DNA from: a virus | Lineage: Duplodnaviria > Heunggongvirae > Uroviricota > Caudoviricetes | Reading direction: 5' to 3' (one strand) | Length of the DNA: 64,000 nucleotides | Virus record (IMG/VR): IMGVR_UViG_3300029732_000280 | Shown here: positions 61,528 to 63,518 of the stretch, one piece after another | Layout of the letters: the number at the start of each line of letters is the position of its first letter | Position numbering within the stretch: position 1 is the stretch's first letter | Program-made: the position numbers and the translations under genes | The notes under the pieces: generated by a model | Told to the model about the DNA's origin: nothing | The model's input: the letters and a program-made list of their open reading frames with translations, nothing else | Database searches by the model: none

Positions 61528-62910
61528 CTACTCCTCCAGCCGTGCTCTGACGGCAGATATCAGCTTTTCCTGTGTCATGTCCTTCTGCTCCAGCGCAGCC
61601 ATGACATCCTCGTCTACTGTGTTTTTCGTGATGATGTGGTGAATGGTCACCACATGGGTCTGTCCCTGCCGCCAAAGCCGGGCATTGGTCTGCTGATACA
61701 ACTCCAAAGACCAGGTCAGCCCAAACCAGATCAGGATGTGTCCGCCCTGCTGGATGTTCAGACCATGTCCGGCCGATGCAGGGTGGATCAGTGCGACCGG
61801 GATGTTCCCGGCATTCCAGTCCTTGATGTCAGTGCTGCTCTTGATGTCCCGAACTTTGATTTTCAGCTTCGACAGATGGCTGATGATACGCTCCCTGTCA
61901 TGCTTAAACCAATAAGCTACCAGCACCGGCTGTCCGTTGGCGGCTTCGATCAGGTCTTCGAGAGCTTCCAGCTTGTGATCGTGAATGACTCTCGCCTTGC
62001 CATTCTCGTCATATACCGCGCCATTGCTCATCTGCAACAGCTTCCCTGTCAGTGATGCAGCATTGGCAGCGTCTATGTCACCGTCTTTCAGCGGAATCAA
62101 AAGATCCTGCCGGAGCATATCGTAGAGTTCCCTTTCCTGCGTGTTCATCTCAACTTCATACCTTGTAGGTACACAATCCGGCATATTGAGATAATCCAGA
62201 GCCTTCATAGAAATCGTGATGTCAGAGATCCGCTGGTAGATCATCTCCTCTGCTCCCTGTCTGGGCACATACTGGAACACGATTCCTGTTGCCGGGTTCA
62301 TCGACCCAGCCTTAAAGTAGGCTTCCCGGTAGCGGCCGATAAACTTTCCAAGGCGCTCCCCGCCATCCAGAATCCCAATCTCTGCCCACAAATCCATAAG
62401 GCCGTTGGAAGAAGGTGTGCCGGTCAGACCAACCCACCGCTTCACAAACGGGCGGACTTTTCGCAGGAACTTAAAACGCTGGGACTGATAGTTTTTGAAC
62501 GATGACAGCTCATCGATCACAACCATGCCAAAATCCCAGCGCATGCCATTTTTCTCGTAATACTCCACCAACCACTTGATGTTCTCCCGATTGACAATGT
62601 AGATCATCGCCGGGTGGTGGACTGCCGCAATCCGGGTCTTAACATCTCCAACAATAACGGAAATGTCCAGACCTTTCAGATGGTCCCATTTCTCGATTTC
62701 TGCCGGCCATGTGTCACGGGCAACTCGCAGCGGTGCGATGATGAGGACCTTGTTGACCTCAAAAGTCTCAAGCATAAGGTCTTTGATGGCAGAAAGTGTA
62801 ATAACGGTCTTTCCTTAACCCAAGCCCATATCCAAGAAAAGTGCTGCAATCGGGTGCGTTTTAATATACTCGGTGCAGTAACTCTGATAATCGTGTGGAA
62901 TGAACTTCAT
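61528..62910 (-). pseudogene. SNF2-family (SF2) helicase interrupted by an in-frame TAA inside the Walker A motif (DMGLG*GKT). The N-terminal 31 codons run 62818..62910 and the rest is ORF 61528..62775.
   Basis: MKFIPHDYQ...LFLDMGLG then TAA (minus-strand codon, 62815..62817) then GKTVITLSAIKDLMLETF..., all in the same frame. Deleting 6 nt (TTAAGG) would restore DMGLGKT. DEAH-like VIDELSS and the helicase C-domain are present downstream. Confidence 0.6.
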
Positions 62911-62917
62911 AGCGGCA

Positions 62918-63325
62918 TCACCTCCTCCCGGCATCCTGTGCCCGTGTTTCCGGCTCATCGCTTTGTGTATCTCCCTGCGGCAGCGTAACTTCCGGCATCT
63001 CCGGGATCTTTGCTCCGATTCCCTGTGGGAGAGGTTCACCCGGCGTCCAGTGCAGGAGTGCGTCCACCGCAGGCTGAATCTGCTCCAAACGGTCAACGCA
63101 GAACACTGGAAAGCCCAGTGCCTCCAGCTGCTGTCTGCGCTTCCGCTGAAGGATTCGCATCTGCTTGCCCGGAGCTTTCAGCTCCACAAACGCACACTTG
63201 CCACCGATCAGTAGAACCAACCGATCCGGCACGCCGTTCATAGTCTGACTGGTAAATTTAAGGGCCTGTCCTCCGACGGCCCTTACTGCTTCCACAAACC
63301 GCTTTTCGACTTCATTCTCCCTCAT
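62918..63325 (-). CDS. VRR-NUC domain nuclease (PD-(D/E)xK).
   Basis: MNGVPDRLVLLIGGKCAFVELKAPGK motif. Start ATG 63325 with RBS GAGGAGG. Classic partner of phage SNF2 helicases. Confidence 0.75.
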   Translation of the reverse strand: MRENEVEKRFVEAVRAVGGQALKFTSQTMNGVPDRLVLLIGGKCAFVELKAPGKQMRILQRKRRQQLEALGFPVFCVDRLEQIQPAVDALLHWTPGEPLPQGIGAKIPEMPEVTLPQGDTQSDEPETRAQDAGRR

Positions 63326-63518
63326 CCGACTTCGCCTCCTCTGCCCGCCATACACCGATGCGTGGGCGTTTTCTTTTCTTGTGTTTTTTCTTGCCTTCTT
63401 CCCGGATCACATTACTGATGGCTTCATCTGCAGTCGGGTCCGGGTGGCTGTGGCTGACTTTCCTGTTCGGAGGGTTCTCCTCTTTGTGTTCTGTAACCCA
63501 GTGAATGACATCTTCCAT
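63312..63518 (-). CDS. Hypothetical small basic protein (68 aa).
   Basis: ORF. KKKHKKRKRPR tract. Confidence 0.3.
   Translation of the reverse strand: MEDVIHWVTEHKEENPPNRKVSHSHPDPTADEAISNVIREEGKKKHKKRKRPRIGVWRAEEAKSDEGE

Follow-up and report, generated by a model that had tools for sequence, protein, structure and literature searches.

A 64,000-nucleotide (nt) stretch of DNA from a Caudoviricetes virus (IMG/VR record IMGVR_UViG_3300029732_000280), referred to below as the window, carries a gene for an SNF2-type helicase that is interrupted by an in-frame TAA codon within the Walker A motif. Analysis of this gene and its relatives indicated that the TAA is part of a conserved and selected coding gap, not a lesion, and that the gap is most likely passed when peptidyl-tRNA-Gly leaves GGU, skips UAA and re-pairs with GGA (a +6 hop), which would yield a helicase with the normal GLGKT motif.

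The helicase gene lies on the minus strand, as do the upstream endonuclease gene and all features of the site given below. Its ATG start codon (62908..62910) is preceded by the Shine-Dalgarno (SD)-like sequence GGAGGAGGTGATGCC and overlaps the end of an upstream endonuclease gene. The first open reading frame (ORF1; 62818..62910) comprises 31 codons (MKFIPHDYQSYCTEYIKTHPIAALFLDMGLG) for the N-terminal strand together with the first half of motif I (Walker A). Its last 15 nt (GAT ATG GGC TTG GGT; 62818..62832), whose synonymous sites are strongly biased in interrupted alleles, end with the proposed take-off codon GGT (Gly31; 62818..62820). This codon is directly followed by the in-frame TAA (62815..62817) and the proposed landing codon GGA (62812..62814), TAA and GGA together forming the 6-nt coding gap. 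ORF2 (61528..62811) starts at the AAG codon for the Lys of GKT (62809..62811), continues with ACC, and runs through the DExx and Helicase_C regions to a TAG at 61530-61528, in the window in the same frame as ORF1. Gene callers annotate a 415-amino acid (aa) ORF (61528..62775) that begins at the next ATG (62775) and does not include GKT.

The minus strand at the site reads GGC TTG GGT TAA GGA AAG ACC (DMGLG*GKT), and a contiguous Walker A motif (GxGKT) was not found in one reading frame, since it is split by the TAA unless 6 nt are skipped. Deletion of 6 nt, whose position is ambiguous (TTAAGG, GTTAAG, GGTTAA or TAAGGA), restores the canonical GGC TTG GGN AAG ACC (GLGKT), the motif of every uninterrupted homolog listed. 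The repaired 458-aa protein matched the Pfam families SNF2-rel_dom (69.1 bits; cut-off 24.9) and Helicase_C (25.8; cut-off 23.5) and the PHROG family phrog_62 'DNA helicase' (5e-170), and its best PDB match was 1Z63, the SNF2 core of Sulfolobus solfataricus (E = 5e-15). Motifs I-VI of this SNF2/Rad54-like superfamily 2 (SF2) ATPase were aligned with those of the phage protein, DMGLGKT pairing with DMGLGKT without gaps; the phage enzyme differs in being minimal (458 aa, no accessory domains) and is known here from sequence. A first-pass annotation of the window had described the TAA as equal to a clean 6-nt insertion in an SNF2-type helicase, with ORF 61528..62775 and the 31-codon piece in the same frame. 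Both points are borne out, the former by the sequence and the Pfam matches, the latter by a frame open down to the terminal TAG.

The interruption is real and fixed in its lineage. An identical GGTTAAGG was present in ten independent human-gut metagenome assemblies, and the cultured isolate Faecalibacterium intestinale CLA-AA-H281 was 100% identical, TAA included. The 415-aa ORF was found in exact form in 1665 blocks of the assembly collection. In an exact protein look-up, 799 contigs carried the 415-aa product and at least 1000 carried the 31-aa peptide, while the exactly repaired 458-aa protein was absent among ~15 billion proteins. As the interrupted form was found on 799 contigs and the repaired form on none, the interruption is not a phase of a reversible DNA switch. 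A megablast search of the cultured-phage collection gave no match to a near-identical phage.

Relatives were retrieved by a protein-based search of one genome per GTDB species, which gave 80 loci with 57-100% identity from Clostridia, Bacilli, Negativicutes and other hosts. The helicase gene was interrupted in 50 of the 76 resolved loci and intact in 26. L026 (on a truncated contig) and L027 (a rearranged locus) carry the gap and were left unscored, and L036 and L039 are intact DCGLGKT variants that had been overlooked by the first parser. A pattern scan of IMG/VR yielded at least 120 contigs matching the interrupted pattern; alleles were taken from among the matches listed and deduplicated to ~205 distinct interrupted contexts. 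In diverged metagenomic alleles the break follows the same Gly codon, as in GGC TGA GGC AAA (in frame) or GGT TGA GC AAG (out of frame, with 5 extra nt).

More than 25 different gap sequences were found among the distinct interrupted alleles, and gap length, by allele count, was 1 nt (1 allele), 4 nt (20), 5 nt (78), 6 nt (~91), 7 nt (11), 9 nt (4) or 10 nt (~5). In the final tally 117 of the 215 distinct gap alleles parsed were out of frame (73% in an earlier, anchor-based sample). The clean in-frame insertion recorded by the first-pass annotation is thus correct for the window but incidental to the family. In every allele, skipping of the gap yields GLGKT, and the ORF from the Lys codon extends for ~415-436 codons to the normal end; no other stop codons were found in 97 repaired coding sequences. 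Extra P-loop residues were likewise absent from uninterrupted homologs (~110 full-length proteins and ~80 intact loci).

Genome records of several phages carry the gap. It is 10 nt long in Bacillus phage Carmen17 (recorded as a soil isolate; Carmenvirus of the International Committee on Taxonomy of Viruses), in which the HNH gene gp4 lies directly upstream, and 5 nt long in Paenibacillus phage Pd_22F, also with an HNH gene upstream, in Fusobacterium phage phiPaco (recorded as a rumen-fluid enrichment) and in Erysipelothrix phage phi1605. The gap measures 9 nt in Ruminococcus phage NatCom_38182 (Ca. Heliusvirales) and 7 nt in Streptococcus prophage Javan422, and the site is intact in Staphylococcus phage phiSa2wa_st30. 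The records of phi1605, Pd_22F and Carmen17 give the helicase an internal start.

A slow A-site codon directly 3' of the take-off codon, as expected for bypassing, is a nearly constant feature of the site. In the overall tally the first gap triplet was TGA in 92, TAG in 74 and TAA in 41 alleles, so that 207 parsed gaps start with a stop. When IMG/VR was scanned for 6-nt gaps with NNN at the inserted codon, stops were found in 69 of 69 contigs (TAA 36, TGA 33) and none of the 61 sense codons in any of them. The stop therefore appears to be an obligatory part of the signal. An initial rule that TAG does not occur in 6-nt gaps was dropped, as locus L379 is a single exception. The only clearly parsed gap without a stop was TGGC, in two alleles (L134 and L150, equal to L405 and L406), in which UGG would occupy the A site and a +4 shift to GGC AAA would still be required. 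Both of these loci carry an HNH gene.

The triplets flanking the gap are mostly readable by the same tRNA (GGT and GGA in the window). The triplet before the Lys codon was GGN in 179 of the ~205 distinct alleles, the others having AGC (20), GAC (9), AGT (3), GAT (1) or AGA (1); all 9- and 10-nt gaps end in GGN. The third base of the non-GGN triplets was a pyrimidine in 30 of 31 cases, compared to 34% in the GGN class (Fisher 4e-11), and at least two pairs with the tRNA-Gly(GCC) anticodon are therefore possible in nearly every allele, AGA excepted. This pattern fits re-pairing of a peptidyl-tRNA-Gly, and not decoding of the triplet as a new amino acid. In a relaxed scan of IMG/VR the take-off codon was GGY in 93 of 95 contigs (98%) and never GGA, and the landing codons were GGA, GGC and GGT. 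The helicase of L021, a contig of a Lawsonibacter metagenome-assembled genome, has 98% protein identity to that of the window and carries GGC TGA GGC in place of GGT TAA GGA. Because several neighbouring synonymous changes separate the two, the N-terminal region seems to be mosaic, which points to recombination around the site.

Selection on the two flanks was estimated from the ratio of non-synonymous to synonymous changes (pN/pS) in 17 phylogenetically independent pairs of alleles with the same gap type, whose divergence, since the gap type is shared, post-dates the gap. Codons 2-31 had a pN/pS of 0.095, the 13 codons from the stop to the position of the window's next ATG one of 0.067, and the remainder one of 0.093. 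Over 31 pairs the same three regions gave 0.22, 0.16 and 0.20, and intact alleles gave 0.23, 0.20 and 0.24. These values indicate that both flanks are translated and under purifying selection like the rest of the gene. They are therefore incompatible with a pseudogene and equally with the 415-aa internal-start protein as the only product. A conserved gap with purifying selection on both ORFs is what a bypass site would be expected to display.

The sequence 5' of the gap is constrained at the codon level. In a set of 51 interrupted alleles that differ from one another by more than 5%, GAT ATG GGC was used at codons 27-29 in all 51, TTR for Leu30 in 48 and GGY for Gly31 in 50. In 23 intact alleles, compared with these by Fisher tests, GGA, GGC, GGG and GGT were all used and Leu was mostly CTT. 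Up to codon 26 and from codon 32 on, variation was free in interrupted and intact alleles alike. The relaxed scan gave GGC in 88 and GAT in 76 of 95 contigs, and 43 of 109 contigs with a 6-nt gap deviated somewhere from the 15-nt motif. In view of these variants, an earlier description of the motif as a strictly invariant 15-nt 'anchor' was softened to a strong codon bias.

In the proposed mechanism, Gly31 (GGU) would be decoded and the ribosome would stall once the stop codon occupies the A site. Its peptidyl-tRNA-Gly would then unpair and re-pair with a Gly or near-Gly triplet a few nt downstream (in the window GGA, 6 nt on), and decoding would restart at AAG ACC (Lys-Thr). The expected product is one polypeptide with a DMGLGKT Walker A, probably at reduced yield, along with a terminated 31-aa peptide. 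Bypassing predicts the junction ...IAALFLDMGLGK and, for the window allele, the tryptic peptide THPIAALFLDMGLGK. Both the translational nature of the gap removal and its efficiency are what we infer from the sequence comparisons. No published description of the interruption was found in the full-text literature, coverage of which was incomplete, so that an earlier description elsewhere is possible; the Heliusvirales paper names the helicase as a marker gene and mentions neither a stop nor a frameshift (PMC11283538).

Several observations weigh against a hop. The single-polypeptide product is a predicted one. About 15% of the alleles would have to land on AGC, GAC, AGT, GAT or AGA with 2/3 pairs only, and AGA reaches even these only if the anticodon is UCC. 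Gaps of the types TGAGGGC/T and TAACCGGGC have a GGG one nt 5' of the in-frame landing codon. Unstimulated stop-hops in Escherichia coli are only ~1% efficient. At the helicase site the 5' motif showed no anti-SD pairing (~-5 kcal/mol, no stronger than the variants in intact alleles), and neither stimulatory nor conserved RNA structure was detected upstream or downstream (RNAalifold 0.0; local minimum free energy z = +0.4, not below shuffles). Other routes are also open: stops do not bar a plain +1 shift in the case of 4-, 7- and 10-nt gaps, a -1 shift is open for 5-nt gaps, and readthrough is open for gaps of 6 and 9 nt.

The last point defines the first of the alternatives, recoding by the smallest shift that joins the frames: readthrough for 6- and 9-nt gaps (including the window), +1 for gaps of 1, 4, 7 and 10 nt, and -1 or +2 for those of 5 nt. 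The products would have 0-3 extra residues just before GKT, giving GLG-x-GKT in the window. None of these routes is blocked by a stop codon, the products of 5-nt TAGGN, 6-nt and most 7-nt gaps still end in GxGKT, and the 1-nt allele (L429, GGG_UAA_G) is a classical +1 shifty stop, at which GGG can re-pair as GGU. We nevertheless regard this explanation as unlikely. It yields allele-dependent P-loops (GDKT, GSKT, GLSKT, GRKT, G-x-GKT and G-xx-GKT), several of them lacking the invariant Gly before Lys, whereas no uninterrupted homolog has any such insertion. Were GLGxGKT functional, single-base changes from stop to sense should be common, and they were seen in none of the 69 contigs scanned; nor does this explanation offer a reason for the pyrimidine rule at near-cognate triplets. 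Readthrough in particular presupposes an in-frame stop with a conserved in-frame continuation, as found in the window but not in the 117 out-of-frame alleles.

Removal of the gap before translation, either from DNA (reversible slippage, phase variation or excision on induction) or from RNA (polymerase realignment or editing), was judged quite improbable. Some gaps do resemble tandem duplications (TTAGG TTAGG; GGCTTA GGTTAA GGC), intact alleles that retain the 5' motif resemble precise deletions of the gap, and a rearrangement breakpoint lies exactly at the site in L013 and L027. Most gaps, however, lack both a repeat structure and the homopolymer runs at which transcriptional slippage is known to occur, and the look-up described above found the lineage in its interrupted form only. 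Moreover, pre-translational removal explains neither the obligatory stop nor the landing-triplet rule.

The chance that the gene is split, with the 31-aa peptide and a separately initiated C-terminal protein acting as two chains, or with the C-terminal protein (e.g. the 415-aa ORF) acting alone, appears slight. Both ORFs are predicted by gene callers, the gaps are purine-rich and SD-like, and a TTG overlaps the stop in TGAGC-type gaps. Against this, no ATG, GTG or TTG occurs in the downstream frame 5' of the Lys codon in 125 of 153 alleles, and a start further downstream is first met after 2 to 29 codons, if at all. The 13 codons that a start at the window's next ATG would omit are under strong purifying selection, and in P-loop NTPases reassembly of a P-loop that is severed between Gly and Lys is unlikely.

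A loss-of-function lesion, with the helicase dead and the prophage defective or dependent on a D5-type primase-helicase, was the reading preferred in the first-pass annotation and is now very hard to sustain. Under standard rules no single ORF contains a Walker A, and a second replicative helicase-primase (809 aa; D5_N/Pox_D5) is encoded nearby. On the other hand, the same codon is interrupted in ~205 distinct alleles of highly diverged relatives, none of which has a further disruption, every contig in the scan of 6-nt gaps has kept the stop, and pN/pS is ~0.1 on either side of it, as in the rest of the gene. The relaxed selection, further disruptions and sporadic distribution typical of pseudogenes were not found; pN/pS was 0.07-0.10 and the position is conserved. 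The annotation had held that related functional phages with the same split would speak against a lesion, and complete phage genome records, including those of Carmen17 and phiPaco, have it, as do the records of Pd_22F and phi1605. Translational recoding, which it had listed as an alternative, is the explanation that the evidence favours. A sequencing or assembly artefact, another of its alternatives, or an alternative genetic code can be dismissed with near certainty, given the same sequence in independent assemblies and an isolate genome, the exact protein on 799 contigs, the gap in GenBank phage records, the use of all three stop codons at the site, the out-of-frame state of about half of the gaps and the absence of tRNA genes from the window.

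The origin of the gap may be connected with an endonuclease. In some relatives a free-standing HNH_3 (PF13392) gene encoding 100-165 aa separates the VRR-NUC-like endonuclease gene from the start of the helicase and lies ~90 nt 5' of the gap (L052:2510-3004, L269:1234-1542, L484:1328-1741 and 36 others). At its 3' end the same ...GGDAE* overlap with the start of the helicase is used again. In sets whose retrieval did not involve HNH, the gene was present in 39 of 264 interrupted compared to 0 of 73 intact loci (Fisher 5e-5); in the genome sample only, the corresponding numbers were 8 of 50 and 0 of 25 (p = 0.046). The close relatives L052 and L059 differ only by the presence of this gene. Alleles with the 5' motif but no gap had an HNH gene in 0 of 51 cases, and HNH-bearing alleles with the motif were always interrupted.

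Protection of the Walker-A-coding DNA from this upstream homing-type endonuclease may, by analogy, account for the origin or the persistence of the gap; the putative target would be the Walker-A-coding DNA itself, with GATATGGGCTTRGGNAARAC as the uninterrupted site. If the analogy with phage T4 set out below holds, the gap of the window may be an 'orphan' whose endonuclease was lost. The link to HNH is partial, which counts against this proposal. No HNH_3 homolog was detected in the window (best E = 0.059), and when loci were retrieved through their HNH genes, about half of the helicases next to them (~20) were intact, all with diverged P-loop codons. These ~20 cases rule out an exclusive association of HNH genes with interrupted helicases and, because their P-loop codons have diverged, the association is limited to alleles with the 5' motif. 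The full proposal, a first natural and family-wide short-range bypass over a stop, in which the hallmark helicase of a very abundant phage lineage of gut and environment is decoded by a peptidyl-tRNA-Gly hop of 1-10 nt in Walker A and the gap was seeded and partly maintained as self-immunity against an adjacent HNH homing endonuclease, is accordingly put forward as a tentative one, about which we are somewhat more doubtful than hopeful.

Two independent assemblies contain a rearrangement at the site. In L013 (1-600) and L027 (770-3000) the first 30 helicase codons are replaced by unrelated DNA, with the junction exactly 5' of the take-off Gly codon (~592 in L013, ~3000 in L027). The foreign DNA comprises a gene for an AAA_21 ATPase (399 aa), a 172-aa ORF and ~400 nt of ~95%-conserved non-coding sequence with a promoter-like TTGCAA-17-TATAAT, three hairpins and a terminator, which may be a small-RNA gene. 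At the L013 junction a 34-nt hairpin is followed by a T-run and is terminator-like. An Rfam E-value scan found no group II intron or other known RNA there. A mobile element ending at the site was also rejected, as the junction pattern was absent from IMG/VR and its only 3 matches in JGI metagenomes were due to chance; the rearrangement is therefore rare. It is at most a hint that DNA may break or recombine there.

Among known recoding systems, the +1 frameshift of prfB, which encodes release factor 2 (RF2), relies on a stop in the A site to drive forward re-pairing of the P-site tRNA. The 1-nt allele GGG_UAA_G is formally of the same type, and TGAC gaps share the weak UGA-C context. The helicase site differs from prfB in having no strong SD sequence 3 nt upstream, and most of its alleles need shifts of 4-10 nt (6 nt, in frame, in the window). 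Closer in arrangement are the synthetic 'stop-hops' of Weiss, Atkins and Gesteland (1987) in E. coli, in which a stop stands between matched codons and 9 nt code for a single amino acid (PMC5009743); GGU UAA GGA in the window is exactly that arrangement. Those sites were engineered and of low efficiency, whereas the helicase site is natural, conserved and variable in length and frame. According to the review of Atkins et al. (2016), no natural in-frame stop-hop was known (PMC5009743).

In phage T4 the HNH endonuclease MobA and the bypass insert of gene 60 constitute one mobile cassette, in which the insert gives protection from self-nicking and is often still present after the endonuclease has been lost. 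Like gene 60, the helicase site has a Gly take-off codon with a stop immediately 3' and a Gly landing codon (PMC5009743), and the insert interrupts a replication protein within a conserved catalytic motif. A gene of the HNH family likewise adjoins the interrupted gene in part of the helicase family and is lost in the rest, where the gap persists. A T4-type cassette is further marked by a ~50-nt gap, a take-off stem-loop, a nascent-peptide signal and an SD sequence in the gap. The gap, however, is 50 nt long in T4 but 1-10 nt in the helicase family, and neither a take-off stem-loop or other conserved structure nor anti-SD pairing stronger than that of intact-allele variants was found. Furthermore, the take-off and landing codons of the helicase are synonymous and usually not identical, the endonuclease gene lies between two genes and does not split one, and its activity and target are putative. 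Another candidate bypass, in the terminase of Streptomyces phage Hau3, has gaps of 7-10 nt, and mass spectrometry placed a Gly at the take-off (GWG|NDP) (PMC10732093). It shares with the helicase a short coding gap that lies at a highly conserved junction of an essential phage gene, but its trigger is a rare UUA codon, not a stop, and it was seen in 3 of 100 terminases, as opposed to the greater part of a gene family (PMC10732093).

The endonuclease gene upstream of the helicase (62918..63355) had been named as a VRR-NUC partner by the first-pass annotation. Its assignment to a PHROG endonuclease family is clear (phrog_93, 1e-23), but the Pfam VRR-NUC match is weak (E = 0.024, below the cut-off), and the gene is best called VRR-NUC-like. 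The replication module (~40000-64000) further encodes a PDDEXK/DUF2800 protein, an Enc34-type single-stranded DNA-binding protein, DNA polymerase A, a DUF932 protein, a PemK toxin, the D5-type primase-helicase, S-adenosylmethionine synthetase, an HNH protein (PF01844), a ParB-N6/N4 methyltransferase and a C5 methyltransferase. No tRNA gene, including suppressor or special tRNAs, was found in the window. The module matches the marker set given for Ca. Heliusvirales (PMC11283538), and the helicase is a hallmark of a large group of Firmicutes phages and prophages that carry the marker genes of Ca. Heliusvirales and of related siphoviruses.

Two entries in the protein data stood apart. The 90%-identity cluster of the 415-aa protein includes a protein of 457 aa from Mitsuokella jalaludinii (P0123) that is named 'MATE family efflux transporter', which reflects either an erroneous name in the source or a quirk of the clustering. 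A 576-aa protein (P0023) has the N-terminus of a DUF932 protein fused to the helicase from ...VRKVLIIAPLR and is a deletion variant that has lost the nuclease gene and the first ~55 helicase codons.

If the hop takes place, the helicase family represents a natural stop-hop with a built-in allelic series (gaps of 1-10 nt, three stops and many landing triplets), and the rules of take-off and landing are therefore directly testable. It may also be a second case, after mobA and gene 60 of T4, of a homing endonuclease with a bypassed immunity insert. For the phages themselves, the finding points to a replication helicase that is tightly limited or conditionally controlled. In annotation, phage and prophage helicase genes are being called in their thousands as truncated ORFs or as pseudogenes, and prophages may therefore be wrongly scored as defective.

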